A stretch of 21,656 bases of DNA, from UHGV virus genome UHGV-0374425; one strand, given 5' to 3'. Made by a program: the position numbers and the translations under genes. Below, in pieces: positions 1,214-16,872 of the stretch; position 1 is the stretch's first letter; each line of letters begins with the position of its first letter. This DNA is from a virus. Under the pieces are notes generated by a model. The model worked only from the letters and a program-made list of their open reading frames with translations, searched no databases and had not been told where the DNA came from.

Positions 1214-2128
1214 TCAGTAGCGATGCAGTGAAGGCGGCAACTCTTTGTTCTTAAGCCTTTCCCATGCCAGAAGGTTCGTCGGCCCGTCAGGCTCATAAAT
1301 ATCTATATCCCGCGTGTGATTAATTAAAACGCCCCTCGCCCTCCCGATGGTATACGAGAACTCATAGCCGTAGTCGTGGCATATGCCGGAATAGCCAGAC
1401 TGAATCAGTTTTAATGCGGGATACAACTCACGGAACAATGCCTGTGAGCGGTTAGCATAATCCCATAGCCATACAAGGCTGTCTGTTTCTTTTGCGGAAA
1501 GCTCGTTGGTGCTCTTCTCTTGTTTGCCGATTAACTCTCCTTCAAGCGGAACGCGAGCAGCAAGTGACAGAGCTTCGGTAAACTGCTCCTCGCTGATTTC
1601 TTTGTACGAACATCCAAAATGTGATTTCAGTGACGACCACATGGTGATCATCGCCTTCGCCTGTTTTTCCTTTGGCAGAGACTGACCGCGACTCATGACG
1701 AGTTGTTTAATGGCTTCCTGCTGTTCAGTAGTGATTTTCCCCGGCAACGCCTTTTTAGCTTTCAGTGTATTTCCGTAAGACCCCGTTTTACGAATGGATG
1801 GCAAAACTTCAGCTGTCACCCATTTGCGGAATTTGTGCGGGACTGAACCTTTATTGACGGCATCGCGGCAACGCAGAACCAATGTATACATACCTGATTC
1901 GCTCACAATGCTTAAATTCTGCTCACCACCAAGGGTGTAACTTAAAGTTACTCCCTTTTCATCGTCATCAAGTGCAGTAAGCGCCTTGCGTGAGTTAGTC
2001 AGATTTAAAGCATCACAAACATCTTTTGCTACAAACCACGGCTCACCGCACTTGTTGATGACGCGGATTTCACTGTCGCCGAATTTGAAGATGGTGAAAT
2101 CGTTTTGTGCCTTTGCTATACTTTTCAT
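1214..2128 (-). CDS. ant: Antirepressor Ant (P22 Ant-like, BRO-N type N-terminal domain)
   Basis: 304 aa; N-terminal [16 protein letters not shown]...LDDDEKG...GGEQ...IVSESGMY...[15 protein letters not shown] closely parallels P22 Ant as recalled; AGGAAA RBS; follows the arc-like gene. Confidence 0.85.
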
Positions 2129-2200
2129 GTCAATATTTCCTAATCCGATTTGTTGATACCGAAGCCCTGACTGTTACAGCAGTTGGGGCTTCAACTTTTT
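2129..2200 (+). ncRNA. sar: Candidate sar-like antisense RNA covering the ant ribosome-binding site
   Basis: Plus-strand hairpin GAAGCCC(2161-2167)/GGGCTTC(2186-2192) followed by AACTTTTTAGG in the arc-ant intergenic region, antisense to the ant RBS; possible -10 TATACT at 2117-2122. Matches the position of P22 sar. Confidence 0.4.
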
Positions 2201-2331
2201 AGGCTGCGAATAAGACGCTGCACTATTTCTGAATTTAAAGACCTGCCCTCCTCCTTAGCCTTTTCCTTCAATTTTTCTTTAATCTCTGGCGGGATACGAA
2301 TCCCTAATGGAGCGATATCTCTAACTTTCAT
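2191..2331 (-). CDS. arc: Arc-like ribbon-helix-helix repressor (46 aa)
   Basis: MKVRDIAPLGIRIPPEIKEKLKEKAKEEGRSLNSEIVQRLIRSLKS: strand-helix-helix pattern with GRS.NSEI motif as in Arc/Mnt/CopG; directly upstream of ant. The 87 aa version in the ORF track would run across the operator region and the mnt start, so the internal ATG at 2331 is preferred. Confidence 0.7.
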   Translation of the reverse strand: MKVRDIAPLGIRIPPEIKEKLKEKAKEEGRSLNSEIVQRLIRSLKS

Positions 2332-2345
2332 TTCTTTCCCAATTG

Positions 2346-2430
2346 CTACACCGTGATAACTAAATACTACACCGTGCTTATTTAAAGTCAAAGTTTTTTT
2401 GCCTACACTGTGTAGCAATGCTACAGCGTG
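2346..2430. promoter_or_regulatory. Divergent promoter/operator region with four copies of a CTACAC(C/T/G)GTG motif, one extended to the palindrome CTACACTGTGTAG
   Basis: Motif at 2346-2355, 2367-2376, 2403-2412 (palindrome 2403-2415) and 2421-2430. Candidate -35 TTGACT / -10 TAGTAT on the minus strand for arc-ant; candidate TTTAAA / TACACT on the plus strand for mnt. Confidence 0.55.
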
Positions 2431-2441
2431 CAGGAGGAAAA

Positions 2442-2690
2442 ATGAAAGGTGCAAGAGATATCAGTCCCTTGGGAATTAGGATTCCAGACTATTTAAAGAA
2501 ACGCATTCAGCAGGAAGCGGATAAAAACGGCAGATCAATGAACTCAGAGATTGTGCTTATCCTTCAAAAACATGTTGATAATCTTGATGGCCCTCGCTCA
2601 CTTGAAGGATTCGCTAACCAAGAAGCTGACAAATTCAAAGAGGCGCTGCTTGAGACGCTAAAGACCATGTATGGTAAGGATGAAAAATAA
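2442..2690 (+). CDS. mnt: Mnt-like ribbon-helix-helix repressor (82 aa)
   Basis: MKGARDISPLGIRIPDYLKKRIQQEADKNGRSMNSEIVLILQ...: same length and RHH pattern as P22 Mnt, with C-terminal extension; strong RBS CAGGAGG at 2431-2437; the upstream ATG at 2418 lacks an RBS. Confidence 0.75.
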   Translation: MKGARDISPLGIRIPDYLKKRIQQEADKNGRSMNSEIVLILQKHVDNLDGPRSLEGFANQEADKFKEALLETLKTMYGKDEK

Positions 2691-3226
2691 TGCTGCACAC
2701 AATTCATTTCTTATGCCCCGTTAACACTGCCACTGTTGGGCAACTTCAGAACCACTGTCTCACCGCATTATCTCAAGGCGCAACTGAATTAAATATCCAT
2801 ATATCAAGTCAGGGAGGGGAAACTGCCGCTGGCTTTACTGCGTATAACTTTCTTAAGTCACTCCCTGTTACCGTTAGAACTCACAACATAAGCAATGTTG
2901 AATCCATAGCTAATATCGTTTTCCTGGCTGGCTCAGAACGTTTCGCAAACCCATTATCAAGATTCCTGTTACATCCTCTATTATGGGTCTTTGCCACCCC
3001 AGCCGCCGACCATGCCAGATTGAGAGAGTACGGGAAATGCCTCGATAACGATCTTGATCGCTTCGTTGAGACGTTCAATATCGACATCGGAACCCATATT
3101 AGGTGGGCATCCCTGATAGCAGACTCGACCATTTTGGATGCTAACAAGGCTCTTGAGCATGGCATAATTAATTCCATAAAAACTGCAAGGCTGGCATCCA
3201 ATCAGGCAAACTGGTGGGTTGTTTGA
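2690..3226 (+). CDS. ClpP-family (S14-like) serine peptidase homolog, translationally coupled to mnt
   Basis: 178 aa; NIHISSQGGETAAGFTAYNFLKSLPVTVRTHNISNVESIANIVFLAGSERFANPLSRFLLHP aligns by eye with ClpP [62 protein letters not shown]; candidate Ser, His and Asp at ClpP-equivalent positions; start ATG overlaps the mnt stop (TAATG). Confidence 0.6.
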   Translation: MLHTIHFLCPVNTATVGQLQNHCLTALSQGATELNIHISSQGGETAAGFTAYNFLKSLPVTVRTHNISNVESIANIVFLAGSERFANPLSRFLLHPLLWVFATPAADHARLREYGKCLDNDLDRFVETFNIDIGTHIRWASLIADSTILDANKALEHGIINSIKTARLASNQANWWVV

Positions 3227-3282: not shown

Positions 3283-3981
3283 TTACTGCGAAAGTTTATT
3301 AATGGAAAGGAAACCGCCAAAATTGCCGACATTCCTGCGCAGTTCACACCCGCGCATGCACTTGCTGCATCTGTCCTTACGGATATCCGTGGTGGGTTTA
3401 TCGAACTCATCCGCCACAGCCCCGCCCGTGTAACCACACTCATCAGAGCGGTAAGTCCACATACAGGTATTCGCCAGCATAATGCGACCGGGAAACAGCG
3501 CACCGTCCGTCTCCGTCGGTGTCGCCAGCACAAACGAGGCCGTCATGGCCGTCAGCGCTGATAACTGCTCCACCACCCACCGGTCCGTCAGCTCCTGCTC
3601 CGGGTCTGCCTCCGGATTCCCCGCCACAAAGTTCACCGCATCAAGAAAACGCGCATACACCCGGCGGCGGACCACCGTGGCACCCACCAGGCTCTGCAAA
3701 TCCTCCGCCATCCCGGTGACAAGGCCGAAAAGATTGGACACCGTCAGCGACGGGCGGGCACTGCTGCCCTTTCCGTTCATCTCAAAGCCGCTGCCCTCAA
3801 TCGGGTACGCCTGATATTCACGCCCCTGCCAGGTCACCGGCTCCCCTTTTTCATTCAGCTCATTACAGAAAAAATACCGCTCACCACCCTGCACCGTCAG
3901 GTCAATTTCCCAGAGTACCACCCGCGGTGACTGCTCTGATTTAACCGACTCATTCAGGCTTTCTTCGTTGATCTCCTGCAT
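3283..3981 (-). CDS. L: Minor tail protein L
   Basis: Translation ...VVLWEIDLT..GGERYFFCNE.NEKGEPVTWQGR.YQ.YPI.GSGFE.NGKG...GNFGGFLSINKLSQ parallels lambda gpL along its length; start placed at the ATG of MQEINEESL (3981), preceded by GGTGGA, rather than the upstream ATG of the track ORF. Confidence 0.9.
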   Translation of the reverse strand: MQEINEESLNESVKSEQSPRVVLWEIDLTVQGGERYFFCNELNEKGEPVTWQGREYQAYPIEGSGFEMNGKGSSARPSLTVSNLFGLVTGMAEDLQSLVGATVVRRRVYARFLDAVNFVAGNPEADPEQELTDRWVVEQLSALTAMTASFVLATPTETDGALFPGRIMLANTCMWTYRSDECGYTGGAVADEFDKPTTDIRKDRCSKCMRGCELRRNVGNFGGFLSINKLSQ

Positions 3982-3993
3982 AAACATCCACCC

Positions 3994-4020
3994 ATAAAAA
4001 AAGGGGCGCAATGCGCCCCT
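3994..4020 (-). terminator. Strong rho-independent terminator (GGGGCGCA/TGCGCCCC stem plus T7) ending the porin transcription unit, immediately upstream of the L start
   Basis: Minus strand reads AGGGGCGCATTGCGCCCCTTTTTTTATGGGTGGATGTTTATG. Confidence 0.7.
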
Positions 4021-4177
4021 GATAAAATAGTTCAATTAAAAAATCAAAAACGATGAAGGTAATAAAATGAAAATTAAATCAGCTAATAGCTGATCGCAGT
4101 GACCAGTGGAAATATAACTTCCACTGATACAGGCCATCTGTGAGGGCAGATGGCCTGTATTTATTTACCAGTAATCA

Positions 4178-5341
4178 TCAGAACTGATAAGTCATACCAA
4201 CAGCAACGATATCATCCGTTGCAATGCCCGCATCCCTGGTAAACTTATTCTCATCAACCAGATTGATTTTATAATCAACATAGGTGGACATATTTTTATT
4301 GAAGTAATATTTCGCACCTACGTCAACATACTTAACCAAATCCTGGTCACCATAGTTTTTACCACCTACAATGACATCCTGAGCACGAGACTGCAGGAAT
4401 GCCAGAGATGGACGCAGACCGAAATCAAACTGATACTGCAGTACCGCTTCAAAGTTTTGCGCTTTATCTGCAACTCCTTTATCACCAAAGGTCGTCAGAT
4501 TCTGAGTTTCGGAATATGTTGTAGCCAGGTAAAGGTTGTCAGCATCGTATTTTAGTCCGACTCCCCACATCTCAGCGTGTTTACCTTTTGCAACACTACC
4601 GGAATCAACAACGATCTGCTTTTCAGTCACTTTACCGGTTAAAGGATCAGTTTGTTCAATCGTCAGAGTACCATTCAGACCTTTTTCCTGATTATTGGTT
4701 CGGTCCGCATTAATATATGCGGCAACGATACCAAAACCTTCATATTCATAACTGGCTGAGAAACCGTGACCATCACCATTAGCTTCCCGGAGATCACCCC
4801 GATCATTTTTACCCTGGTACTGTGCCGCAAAATTCAGGCCATCGACAAGCCCAAAGAAATCTGTATTACGATAGGTTAATACCCCGGAAGTACGGGCTGT
4901 CATGAAGTTATCGGTCTGGGTCCAGCCATCACCGCCAAACTCTGGTAATACGTCAGTATAAGAACCAACATCGTACGCAATACCATAGTTACGACCATAA
5001 TCAATGGTGCCAAACTCACCAAACTTCAGACCTGCAAATGCAAGACGGGTTTTATTACCCGCAGCACCCTCTGATTCAGCTTTATTACCAGAGAACTGAT
5101 ATTCCCACTGACCAAAACCAGTCAACTGGTCATTAATCTGAGTTTCACCTTTAAAGCCCAGACGTGCGTATGTCTTATCTCCATCATCCCCCTTATCACT
5201 GGAGAAATAATGGAGTGCAGTTGCACGCCCATACACATCAAGTTTATTGCCATCTTTATTGTATACTTCTGCAGCCTGCGCCCCCGCTGCAAAAATTACA
5301 GCTGCTGCCACAGCTGAAAGTGCCACTGTCATTTTTTTCAT
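4178..5341 (-). CDS. OmpC/OmpF/NmpC-family general porin (prophage moron) with signal peptide
   Basis: 387 aa; signal peptide ending [51 protein letters not shown] and C-terminal ...YVDYKINL...GMTYQF match E. coli OmpC as recalled; AT-rich upstream region; hairpins downstream. Confidence 0.9.
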
Positions 5342-5547: not shown

Positions 5548-5889
5548 TTATCTTATTACCTGTTCCATCATACAACTGAAATCGCTGTACCTGGCGTTAT
5601 CCGTAATACTCCACTCCCGGCACACCACCCTGACCGTCCGGTTATGTTTCGGGGGTTTCCACAAAAAGGCACGGTAACCACCATGCCACGATAAAAATTC
5701 ATCCAGCCAGCGCCGGGTCGCCTCATCCGTCACCCGGAACACTGCCTGAAATGTCTTCAGTCGGGCATTCAGTCCCGTCGGTCGGCGCTGTTCATAACCG
5801 TCACCAAACCGGACCCTCACCACCGACGGTTTCTCACTCACCTGCATCCCTTCACGCGGGACCAGATGCAGCGTTTTTATCTCAGCCAC
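5548..5889 (-). CDS. M: Minor tail protein M
   Basis: 113 aa; VRFGDGYEQR...GLNA.LKT...FLWKPP pattern matches lambda gpM; GTG start overlaps the end of H. Confidence 0.8.
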   Translation of the reverse strand: MAEIKTLHLVPREGMQVSEKPSVVRVRFGDGYEQRRPTGLNARLKTFQAVFRVTDEATRRWLDEFLSWHGGYRAFLWKPPKHNRTVRVVCREWSITDNARYSDFSCMMEQVIR

Positions 5890-14934: not shown

Positions 14935-16872
14935 TCAGCCGCCGGACGCACTGCCGTAGTTCACTCCGGTGATCACCGCCACCGCCGCGGTACGGCGACG
15001 ACGCCAGTTGATCCAGCGCTCCGCACGGATGGCCACGCTGCCTGTCTGGAACATGGAAACCAGCTCCACCGGCGACGGCGTGGTACTGTCGCCGGTCGGC
15101 TCAGACTGCATTTCCAGTGATGCCTCGCGGGACATATCCACTGCCACGCCGCCGTCATCCGCCAGATAAATATCCGGGGCATTCACCAGCACCAGCTGGT
15201 CACCCACGTACTGAGAGACAATCACCGGCAGCCCCTGGAAGGTCCCCCCCAGCAGGGTCATGTCCGGATATTCCTTCTGACCCAGCGCATTTTTACGCAT
15301 GGACAGTGCCAGGGCATTTGTGCTGGACATCAGCCAGACCGCACCGGTGGGCTGCAGGTTTGCTGCCACAAACTGTCCAAACGCCGCCTCTGCATCCGCA
15401 TCCGGGTTACCGCTTGATGCCGTGCCCTTCACATCATGGGTGATGGACGCCGGGGAGACATCTGCCACCGCCGCTTTTTTCGGGTCCACAAAGTCTGTAT
15501 CCAGACGCGCCACCACCGCTTCCGCCAGCGCATTACGGACCAGTGCATCAGCAGCCGGACTGGAAAAACGGATCAATTCTTCCGTCAGTACCGCAATGGC
15601 CGACACCTTCGCATGACTGAAGGTGATGGATTCAAAATCAAACTTCGTCAGGGGTTTTGCCTTACCCTCCCCCACCCAGCCGGCAGCACCGCCGGACACC
15701 TGGGCGTGCACACGGATATTGAACGGCACCTGACGAAGTGCAGGGATCCCGCCCTGACCAAATCGCCCGATAATGGTCTGAGGACGCAGGTAATCAATAA
15801 AGTCCTGTGCATATTCCTGATATTCAGACAGGCTGCCTGCCCACTGCGGATCCGTGGTGGTCCCCGCGCCCACTGCCGATTTCAGGACATGATGCAGACG
15901 ACTGTCATCAGGATACTGACGACGGGCCACTTCCAGGGCTTCAGAGCGGACACCTTTAGCCGCAGCCAGTGATTTGGCAAAGCGGGCGAAGCCAATCCCC
16001 TTATCCAGTTTCTGCTCCACACGGATCACCGGCGCAGAAGCCACCGCGGCCACATTCCCGTTACCGGCCTGTTTCACCGGCTGCGCCGTGGCGGCCTTAC
16101 CGGCTTCCAGTTCACGCAGGCGCTTCAGGTGCGCATCCACCTGACGGATTTCCGCTGCGGTGTTGTCGTAATGCTCCTCCTCCTCCACATCCAGCGTGCG
16201 CCCTTCCTCTGCGGCTTTGGTCATGACCTCCTCAAGGGAGGCTGCCAGCGCTGCACGCTTGTTTTCAAAACTTTTAATCTGTTCGCCAATATTCATTATG
16301 GTCTTTTCCTTATGAAAAACGGTTGTTGACTGTGCCGCAGCGCCGGCAGAAGATGCGATTTTCACCACCGGTTTCCGGTTGCCGGACGCGGCAGAAAACG
16401 GGCGGTCGTAAGATTTAATGGTCCGGATGGTGCATTCCGCATTCGCGGGCACGGTAACGGCAGACACCTCCATCAGTTCCCAGCGCAGAAAATGCAGTCC
16501 ACCTCCGTCCAGAAAGGTGTATTCATGGGGACGGAAGCCCACGGACAGCCCCCTGACCAGCCCGGTCTTAATGGCCGCCCAGACCTCATCCAGCCGGGCA
16601 GCCAGTTGCGACGGCATATCCGGTACGGGCTTCACCAGTGTTGCCGTGATTTCCAGCCCTTCGCTGACCCGGCGCACCGTACACTGCCCCACCGGGCGGG
16701 AATGGTCATGCTGCCAGAGAAACGGGATCGCACTGCCAAACTCCGCGCCCTCCGGCTCCAGGATGTCACCATCCCGATCCGGAGAAGGCGTTGACGCAAT
16801 CCCGGTGATCACCCGCTCATCCTCACTGAAGGATTTCACCGTCAGCAGGGAGCAGGCCCGTTTAAGAGTCAC
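14935..16872 (-). CDS. Fused prohead protease (HK97 gp4-like) / scaffold-like coiled coil / HK97-family major capsid protein
   Basis: 645 aa; N-terminal about 170 aa has the prohead-protease pattern (...GIASTP..DRDGDIL..GAF...GLSVGF...ELMEVSAVTVPAN); then a charged coiled-coil segment; C-terminal about 400 aa capsid-like; GTG start with AGGAGG RBS. Confidence 0.8.
   Translation of the reverse strand: MTLKRACSLLTVKSFSEDERVITGIASTPSPDRDGDILEPEGAEFGSAIPFLWQHDHSRPVGQCTVRRVSEGLEITATLVKPVPDMPSQLAARLDEVWAAIKTGLVRGLSVGFRPHEYTFLDGGGLHFLRWELMEVSAVTVPANAECTIRTIKSYDRPFSAASGNRKPVVKIASSAGAAAQSTTVFHKEKTIMNIGEQIKSFENKRAALAASLEEVMTKAAEEGRTLDVEEEEHYDNTAAEIRQVDAHLKRLRELEAGKAATAQPVKQAGNGNVAAVASAPVIRVEQKLDKGIGFARFAKSLAAAKGVRSEALEVARRQYPDDSRLHHVLKSAVGAGTTTDPQWAGSLSEYQEYAQDFIDYLRPQTIIGRFGQGGIPALRQVPFNIRVHAQVSGGAAGWVGEGKAKPLTKFDFESITFSHAKVSAIAVLTEELIRFSSPAADALVRNALAEAVVARLDTDFVDPKKAAVADVSPASITHDVKGTASSGNPDADAEAAFGQFVAANLQPTGAVWLMSSTNALALSMRKNALGQKEYPDMTLLGGTFQGLPVIVSQYVGDQLVLVNAPDIYLADDGGVAVDMSREASLEMQSEPTGDSTTPSPVELVSMFQTGSVAIRAERWINWRRRRTAAVAVITGVNYGSASGG

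Follow-up and report, generated by a model that had tools for sequence, protein, structure and literature searches.

Two ribbon-helix-helix repressors with near-identical DNA-reading strands appear to share one operator motif in an immI-type module of an Escherichia coli lambda-like prophage

Do two repressors encoded on either side of one divergent region read the same operator? The question is raised by positions 2332–2441 of a 21,656-nucleotide stretch of the virus genome UHGV-0374425 (hereafter the window), where a gap of 110 bp in the list of open reading frames (ORFs) separates the divergent genes of two ribbon-helix-helix (RHH) proteins, one Arc-like (46 amino acids, aa) and one Mnt-like (82 aa). 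Arc and Mnt of phage P22 are textbook models of β-sheet DNA recognition and of the secondary immunity control of the antirepressor. The original prediction, made from the letters of the window, held that its two proteins share their operators, unlike Arc and Mnt of P22. The bounds of the region were as it gave them, with the ATG codons of the two genes at 2331 (− strand) and 2442, and separate Mnt and Arc operators are indeed annotated in P22. The region is probably the operator–promoter core of a P22 immI-type 'ant moron' in an E. coli lambda-like prophage. Comparison of related loci supported the shared motif well: both proteins are predicted to read CAC-N-GTG, because a single motif class was found together with the same DNA-reading heads, a fixed spacing of 21 and 36 bp, covariation of head and motif, and codon divergence of the two heads.

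The head strands were DIAPLGIRIP in the Arc-like and DISPLGIRIP in the Mnt-like protein, a near-identity already described in the original prediction. They were preceded by the arms MKVRD and MKGARD, respectively, the arm of the Mnt-like protein being one residue longer. The P, G and R of the head aligned with H6/N8/R10 of Mnt and Q9/N11/R13 of Arc, which we take to be the base-contacting sheet positions, and the arm arginine aligned with R2 of Mnt. The structure of the Arc–operator complex is said to go back to Raumann et al. 1994, and the Mnt genetics to Knight & Sauer 1989. Both proteins of every type-A pair kept R-x-I-x-P-x-G-x-R, and the inward-facing head positions varied (L/M/F/T, I/V/L and I/V/L/M). 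Recent gene conversion or duplication as the source of the identical strands was rejected. Four of the 11 codons of RDI(A/S)PLGIRIP were identical between the arc-like and mnt-like genes, six differed synonymously and one non-synonymously, and similar patterns were seen in other lineages. Since largely different codons encode the strand, recent conversion is unlikely and selection probably maintains the identity.

On the + strand, CTACACNGTG was found without mismatch at 2346, 2367 and 2403. A further exact copy, at 2406 on the − strand, combines with that at 2403 into a perfect 13-bp palindrome, CTACACTGTGTAG, at 2403–2415. Three predicted operators, S1, S2 and S3, were delimited in this way. 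S1 and S2 are half-extended (CTACAC-N-GTG) and lie within a 21-bp tandem unit, and S3 is the full palindrome; the site centres are 21 bp (S1–S2) and 36 bp (S2–S3) apart. Of the four copies of CTACAC(C/T/G)GTG that had been predicted, three, including the one extended to a palindrome, were solid sites. The fourth (S4; 2421–2430, CTACAGCGTG) did not fit, having one mismatch, C to G at position 6, and was unconserved. When up to one mismatch was allowed, four distinct sites were counted in the 110 bp and 300 shuffles never exceeded two, so that the clustering is far beyond chance. In the 50 kb of the near-identical phage PhiR12_1, four of the six matches to TACACNGTG fell in this intergenic region, with 0.8 expected per whole 50 kb. 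A role of the motif as a global phage regulatory site was rejected, as only two isolated TACACNGTG matches were found elsewhere in PhiR12_1. An isolated TACACAGTG was located in an intergenic gap of the early-left operon of that phage (L022, 8110–8118).

The cassette of heads and operators was rare: of 5,426 complete E. coli genomes, 19 carried it, in two allelic forms (100% and ~93% identity), and the Arc-like protein had only 16 relatives among 5.8 billion clustered proteins. Loci from Pluralibacter, Salmonella, two Serratia, Photorhabdus, Tatumella and metagenomes were compared, together with further ones from IMG/VR; individual loci are given by L numbers. Three CAC-N-GTG sites were found in each of at least 10 diverged lineages (the two E. 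coli alleles, Pluralibacter, Salmonella, both Serratia, Tatumella, Photorhabdus, L015/L016 and L020). The S1–S2 spacing was 21 bp (22 bp in L015 and L016), and S2–S3 was 36 bp throughout. When nine lineages were aligned, the S1 core, S2 and S3 together had 26 invariant columns out of 30, compared with 15 of 80 in the rest of the intergenic region (Fisher p = 7e-11). Invariant columns numbered 8/10 in S2 and 12/13 in S3, and the S1 core was invariant in nine lineages. The other invariant block was AAGTCAA, i.e. the −35 TTGACT of the − strand promoter. At the centre base N, S1 and S2 had C, G or T, as expected for the dyad axis of a symmetric dimer's site. In most lineages the conserved unit was a 9-bp palindrome, ACAC-N-GTGT (13 bp in S3), with variable flanks beyond it. 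S4 is doubtful as a fourth operator: it was unconserved, affected by a deletion in the second E. coli allele, and absent in Salmonella, Serratia and Photorhabdus. A genuine CACAGTG at its position was present only in L011, L015/L016, L020 and L040. A second operator class in the intergenic region was likewise rejected, the other conserved blocks being only the −35 of the Pant-like promoter, the −10 region and the T-run.

One IMG/VR locus (L034, 1380–1510) had an R to H change in the Arc-like strand (GIHIP), a mutated S2 (CTATACCGTG), and mutations in the −35 (GTCGAA) and the T-run. This copy seems to be decaying, with changes in the very elements proposed as functional, and it illustrates that such modules can decay. 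The Arc-like protein of the window might itself be decaying or accessory, or might act via mixed oligomers, so that only one protein binds functionally and the likeness of the heads reflects common descent. It is 7 aa shorter than P22 Arc, and heterodimers are conceivable given RHH cores that are 57% identical between the two proteins. However, the 46-aa form and the head were kept across genera despite many synonymous changes, which indicates purifying selection on the DNA-reading strand, and in all lineages compared arc-like still opened the ant operon and had a ribosome-binding site. We therefore consider functional binding by a single protein quite improbable.

Whether the motif goes with the heads could be judged from related modules, since the Mnt-like family combines several different heads with one C-terminal domain (FAQQEADKFKEALLETL..MYGKD) that hardly varies. 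Three loci (L023, L024 and L061) combined a P-Y-S/G-V-R Mnt head with an unrelated Arc head, S-R-I-L-V-R-M-P. They kept CACNGTG or CATNGTG at the S2, S3 and S4' positions, again with 36 bp between S2 and S3, and the S1 position held another palindrome, TT(G/A)TGAATCACAA. In EC.P3 (Mnt head P-T-T-V-R), the S2/S3 positions held CAAAGTG and CACTTTG as an inverted pair spaced by 36 bp, and another palindrome was present near arc. The gene layout of the window was shared by the modules of EC.P3/phiv205-1, Kapi1 and the Stx-phage WGPS6 type and by a second Photorhabdus module. The EC.P3 type also had the Mnt C-terminal domain and the −35/T-run block in common with the window, and its S2 and S3 motifs were likewise 36 bp apart. 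In contrast, EC.P3 (PTR/KLR), the L061 type (PSR/RLR, also seen in L023) and Kapi1 had unlike heads, and EC.P3 and L061 had two motif classes where the window has one. Judged from these modules, the S2/S3 motif follows the Mnt head and the S1 motif follows the Arc head, and the same heads go with three sites of the same kind. That the sites were all alike only where the heads were alike argues more strongly than anything else, short of experiments, for CAC-N-GTG being read by both proteins of the window.

Like heads were not confined to this cassette. In the module of the Stx2a phage WGPS6 (L001, 2681–2787, at the same K/L position), KLNLRLP and KFNLRFP matched at the DNA-facing positions (K-N-R in both), and the intergenic repeats, e.g. 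ATGCCACCAT and ATGGCACCAT, were of a TGGCA/GCCA type unlike those of the window. This type, found in >100 Stx phage records, may be another shared-operator module. The Photorhabdus contig (L017, 5087–5628) carried a second immI-like module with PPQVNIRMP and DPQINIRLP (both Q-N-R) and the repeats TGGCTACCAT; this element holds two shared-head modules together, which are presumably orthogonal. In E. coli MS 196-1 (L007, 2671–3179), two Mnt-like genes stood in tandem. The first had the head of the window and was truncated at ...MYGK, and the second joined a different head (KNPQVNLRLP) to the same C-terminal end (TLKTMYAKDEK). The tandem looks like a recombination intermediate.

Overlap of the motif with candidate −10 elements had been claimed for both transcripts. 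On the arc–ant side, S2 lies over the TAGTAT of TTGACT-16-TAGTAT, a predicted consensus-type, Pant-like promoter whose −35 was invariant (6/6 columns) and whose −10 region was conserved across lineages. On the mnt side S3 contains TACACT, which is the −10 of a weak candidate only, TTTAAA (2381–2386)-17-TACACT (2404–2409), with an 8/12 match. No acceptable hexamers were found for a Pmnt fully overlapping Pant as in P22, and TTTAAA-17-TACACT stayed the best candidate. The repeats might be promoter architecture, or sites of another host or phage factor, in which case the likeness of the heads would be irrelevant; part of the conservation could be promoter constraint where S2 and S3 overlap these −10-like hexamers. 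This explanation is nevertheless highly improbable. The S1 core was invariant although it lies outside any promoter hexamer, the motif varied together with the Mnt head from one module type to the next against a constant −35 and T-run, and a palindrome with an unconstrained centre base, such as CAC-N-GTG, is characteristic of dimeric binders and not of sigma-70 elements.

Several points weigh against a common operator for the two proteins. The literature searched gave no binding, footprint or transcript-mapping data for this module, only studies of the P22 version. It contained no described shared-operator Arc/Mnt pair with a fixed three-site geometry and nothing relevant on PhiR12 phages. S4 had 0/10 invariant columns, and the 36 bp between S2 and S3 do not correspond to whole helical turns. 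The candidate mnt promoter, besides its low score, had an unconserved −35 and was not listed by the scan; because it could not be confidently placed, the role of S3 is uncertain. The sheets of P22 Arc and Mnt differ at one DNA-facing position only, yet their operators differ. Single substitutions in Arc/Mnt hybrids reportedly switch specificity dramatically, in work ascribed to Knight & Sauer 1989 and Raumann et al. 1995. Since such tiny N-terminal changes are sufficient in P22, which is the chief ground for caution, the A7/S8 difference and the longer arm of the Mnt-like protein could give unequal preference among S1, S2 and S3. The hybrid modules, with a different palindrome at S1 where the Arc head differs and S2/S3 following the Mnt head, point to S1 as historically the site of Arc and to S2/S3 as those of Mnt, and a partition via the flanks may persist. 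Finally, the Stx-phage and second Photorhabdus modules also have shared heads, with a single repeat family each, which counts against the uniqueness of the arrangement. The shared-head design is thus more general and the single finding less surprising.

A rival reading is a partitioned array, with a motif family common to both proteins that would nevertheless function like the two operators of P22, the Arc-like protein acting mainly at S1 and the Mnt-like protein at S2/S3 (or with some other split) by way of flanks, arm length and A7/S8. The half-extended form of S1 and S2, compared with the full palindrome of S3, would offer one basis for it. However, the conserved cores of all three sites are the same 7–9 bp, and the flanks of S1 and S2 are unconserved and so hold no conserved discriminating information. 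The DNA-facing residues and the arm arginine were, moreover, identical in both proteins in every lineage. A partition is thus unlikely, and a motif read by both proteins remains the preferred reading.

How would a shared motif be read? Each operator would be bound by one RHH dimer, with its two-stranded β-ribbon centred on N, an arrangement that we favour over the P22 layout of two dimers on a 17–21-bp operator. A P22-like register, i.e. a tetramer on a 21-bp operator with dimers ~5 bp either side of N, was disfavoured because conservation was confined to the central 7–9 bp, the sequence to the right of S1 and S2 being free to vary. Occupancy of S1 (just past +1) and S2 (−10 and spacer) would block Pant. 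At S3, which lies over the candidate mnt −10, occupancy would keep mnt from being transcribed. The two repressors would then differ in oligomeric state and cooperativity, not in the sequence read. By analogy with P22 Mnt, the Mnt-like protein is probably a tetramer via helix 54–81; the C-terminal helix is said to tetramerise P22 Mnt, according to Waldburger & Sauer 1995. Such a tetramer could bridge the in-phase S1 and S2, whose 21 bp correspond to two helical turns. In the lysogen, the Mnt-like protein on S1 and S2 would silence arc–ant and, at higher concentration, limit its own synthesis through S3. After infection or derepression Pant would fire, and the Arc-like dimer would shut off mnt at S3 and damp Pant at S1/S2. 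The antisense RNA sar would add a post-transcriptional limit on ant translation, as in P22. As the operators would be shared, the repressors would be told apart by stoichiometry, cooperativity and timing. Competition for the sites and a regulatory logic different from that of P22, both part of the original prediction, would follow from such a scheme.

By analogy, this logic would be closer to that of CI and Cro at lambda OR than to the private operators of P22. In both cases the genes of two repressors flank a divergent region. The repressors use the same three operators in lambda and would do so in the window, two covering one promoter and the third covering the other. One member of each pair is a minimal dimer, and its partner carries an additional oligomerisation domain, in the window a predicted one. 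The likeness would be one of logic and not of family membership, since lambda OR has helix-turn-helix (HTH) proteins and a lytic early operon as its output, whereas the window has RHH proteins and an antirepressor. The RHH arrays of MetJ (metboxes), CopG, omega and ParG have a symmetric unit of 7–13 bp per dimer, several units and cooperativity between adjacent dimers. They use one protein, in contrast to the two same-head paralogues that flank the array of the window. We tentatively put forward, as a possible though rather doubtful extension, that the cassette is a lambda-OR-like three-operator bistable switch of two same-head RHH paralogues. The promoter to be shut would be set by oligomeric state and site geometry, with the Mnt-like tetramer bridging S1/S2 and the Arc-like dimer favouring S3, and mixed oligomers might form. 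Shared heads would then be common or ancestral, and the two-operator layout of P22 would be derived by recombination at the −35/T-run joint.

In P22, Mnt is the repressor of arc–ant and Arc that of mnt, with a moderating effect on ant, to which sar is an antisense RNA (PMC11016777). The 'ant moron' of P22-like phages was described by Villafane et al., and mechanistic knowledge of 'ant morons' all comes from phage P22 (PMC2629481). The window resembled P22 immI in gene order and orientation, in the two RHH repressors with full-length Mnt homology, in sar and in the C-terminal domain of Ant. Omnt lies just downstream of the Pant +1, at the place of S1, and Oarc lies in the Pant spacer/−10, at the place of S2. 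The central heptamer of P22 Omnt (AGGTCCACCGTGGACCT, L003 1724–1740) is CACCGTG, identical to the S1 and S2 core (2349–2355 and 2370–2376). In contrast, P22 has two distinct 17–21-bp operators, one protein each, and fully overlapping promoters, whereas the window has one short palindrome type in three (or four) copies and candidate promoters that overlap only at their −35 regions. The heads are P-G-R in both proteins of the window compared with Q-N-R and H-N-R in P22. Separate Arc and Mnt operators, a feature of P22 itself and not of the family, were not found in the window, which had the single conserved class CAC-N-GTG and the same heads. Furthermore, the P22 module is located between gene 16 and the tailspike gene and that of the window between K and L, and the N-terminal domain of Ant in the window is Bro-N.

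The type of module is thus already known from the P22 classic, and the shared head and operator family in three-site geometry would be the new part. The cassette and its relatives suggest an alternative wiring, with one head for a maintenance repressor and an early autoregulator on three palindromes of fixed geometry. If true, this would be a compact natural case in which dimer versus tetramer architecture alone separates two regulators with shared operators. The natural head/operator sets (P-G-R with CAC-N-GTG, P-T-R with CACTTTG, and others) could also serve to derive RHH recognition rules and orthogonal synthetic repressors. The finding would further bear on the control of prophage induction by antirepressor modules and on cross-talk between them, including in Stx phages.

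The coordinates of the features are collected in Table 1.

Table 1. Features of the divergent region and of its surroundings in the window
Feature	Position	Strand	Basis or remark
ant-like gene, predicted antirepressor, 304 aa	1214..2128	−	Bro-N PF02498 and P22_AR_C PF10548 (Pfam)
Psar-like promoter, GTGAAA-17-TATACT, TG ahead of −10	2094..2122	+	promoter scan; antisense, inside ant start
sar antisense RNA	2130..2196	+	Rfam RF00262, 69.4 bits (gathering score 43), full-length match
arc-like gene, 46 aa, MKVRDIAPLGIRIP..., also quoted as MKVRDIAPLGIRIPPE...	2191..2331	−	ORF; predicted RHH repressor, first gene of arc–ant operon
Predicted operator S1, CTACACCGTG, core CAC-C-GTG 2349–2355	2346..2355	.	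~+2 to +11 of predicted Pant-like transcript
Pant-like promoter, −35 TTGACT 2386–2391, 16-bp spacer, −10 TAGTAT 2364–2369	2364..2391	−	promoter scan, 9/12
Predicted operator S2, CTACACCGTG	2367..2376	.	overlaps Pant-like −10 and spacer
T7 run (A-tract on − strand), 2 nt upstream of Pant −35	2393..2399	.	read from sequence; in all module types incl. EC.P3, L023
Predicted operator S3, perfect 13-bp palindrome CTACACTGTGTAG	2403..2415	.	contains best mnt −10 candidate
Doubtful site S4, CTACAGCGTGCAG, degenerate palindrome	2421..2433	.	adjoins mnt Shine-Dalgarno
mnt-like gene, 82 aa, MKGARDISPLGIRIP..., also quoted as MKGARDISPLGIRIPDY...	2442..2690	+	ORF; Pfam Arc; RHH head and long C-terminal helix
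ClpP-like gene, 178 aa (head-maturation-protease-like)	2690..3226	+	ORF; Pfam CLP_protease, E 1.6e-11

On homology, the locus can be assigned as a complete P22 immI-type module (ant, sar, arc and mnt), since both regulators matched Pfam Arc, the Ant domains and a sar match were present, and the Mnt homology was full-length within the P22 gene order. The Arc family (PF03869) scored 49.1 and 32.8 bits for the two regulators, with a cut-off of 20.4, and the E-value for the Arc-like protein was 5e-13. The Arc-like protein aligned to residues 9–46 of P22 Arc, with Arc 1ARQ/1BAZ as matches in the PDB. It also passed the NCBIfam model YlcI_YnfO_N (NF041551; 33.2 bits, cut-off 30) and was annotated likewise in RefSeq, a name that holds no functional information. 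The Mnt-like protein, whose gene has the Shine-Dalgarno sequence AGGAGG at 2432–2437, was 32.5% identical to P22 Mnt across residues 4–79 and aligned to residues 1–69 of 1MNT. Its AF2 model had an extended N-terminus and helices at 16–29, 33–49 and 54–81. The best Foldseek matches of this model were Arc, AmrZ and CopG, with weak E-values (best 0.28) that were ascribed to the tiny domain and used as consistency evidence only. For the ant-like product, P22_AR_C scored 89 bits and PHROG 245 'anti-repressor Ant' gave an E-value of 1.5e-103; several relatives have P22_AR_N in place of the N-terminal Bro-N.

The RNA layer of P22 immI was also present, sar having its own promoter and terminator (2094–2196, + strand). 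The Psar-like promoter is at the position of the annotated P22 sar promoter, and an intrinsic terminator (stem 2161–2192 and T-run) was detected within sar by terminator scan. The predicted RNA spans the arc–ant junction and the ant ribosome-binding site and is identical to P22 sar at 55 of 67 nt.

Since the −35/T-run block was common to all module types, it may mark where module halves recombine. The block AAGTCAAA-(T)7-8-G, which comprises the Pant −35 and the T-run, was nearly identical in the window (2386–2402), L004 (1940–1962) and L023 (2445–2462) despite unrelated heads and operators, and it looks like a joint for swapping the arc-side and mnt-side halves. The T7 run itself could be an UP element.

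The prophage that hosts the module is essentially phage PhiR12_1, a lambda-like phage that carries cI, cro, O, P and Q; both the window and PhiR12_1 have the module between the lambda-like tail genes K and L. Among the E. coli genomes, the cassette was found at this siphoviral position and at the podoviral, tailspike-side position (CE10, W4), and the same cassette was present at the podoviral position (gp16/tailspike) in L011–L016 as well as in CE10 and W4. The whole immI module evidently moves between phage morphotypes, since the same cassette occupies K/L and gp16/tailspike positions (1214–3226 of the window; L009, L010 and L011–L016). PhiR12_1 (L022) also has a second antirepressor gene annotated in its nin region (15719–16432).

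The ATG of the ClpP-like gene overlaps the stop codon of mnt-like (TAATG), which indicates translational coupling, and the gene is probably prophage-expressed cargo of the mnt operon. A ClpP-like gene after mnt was also found in EC.P3, phiv205-1, Salmonella L012 and Serratia L014, in podoviral as well as siphoviral contexts. It occupies the place of orf59a/sieA in P22. A defence role for the ClpP-like gene, ant or a porin gene was rejected, as they had no PADLOC matches. The porin gene (OmpC family, 387 aa, 4178–5341, − strand) is a moron between the tail genes L (3283–4035) and M (5548–5889), and the porin in an identical prophage is labelled 'porin OmpC' by RefSeq.

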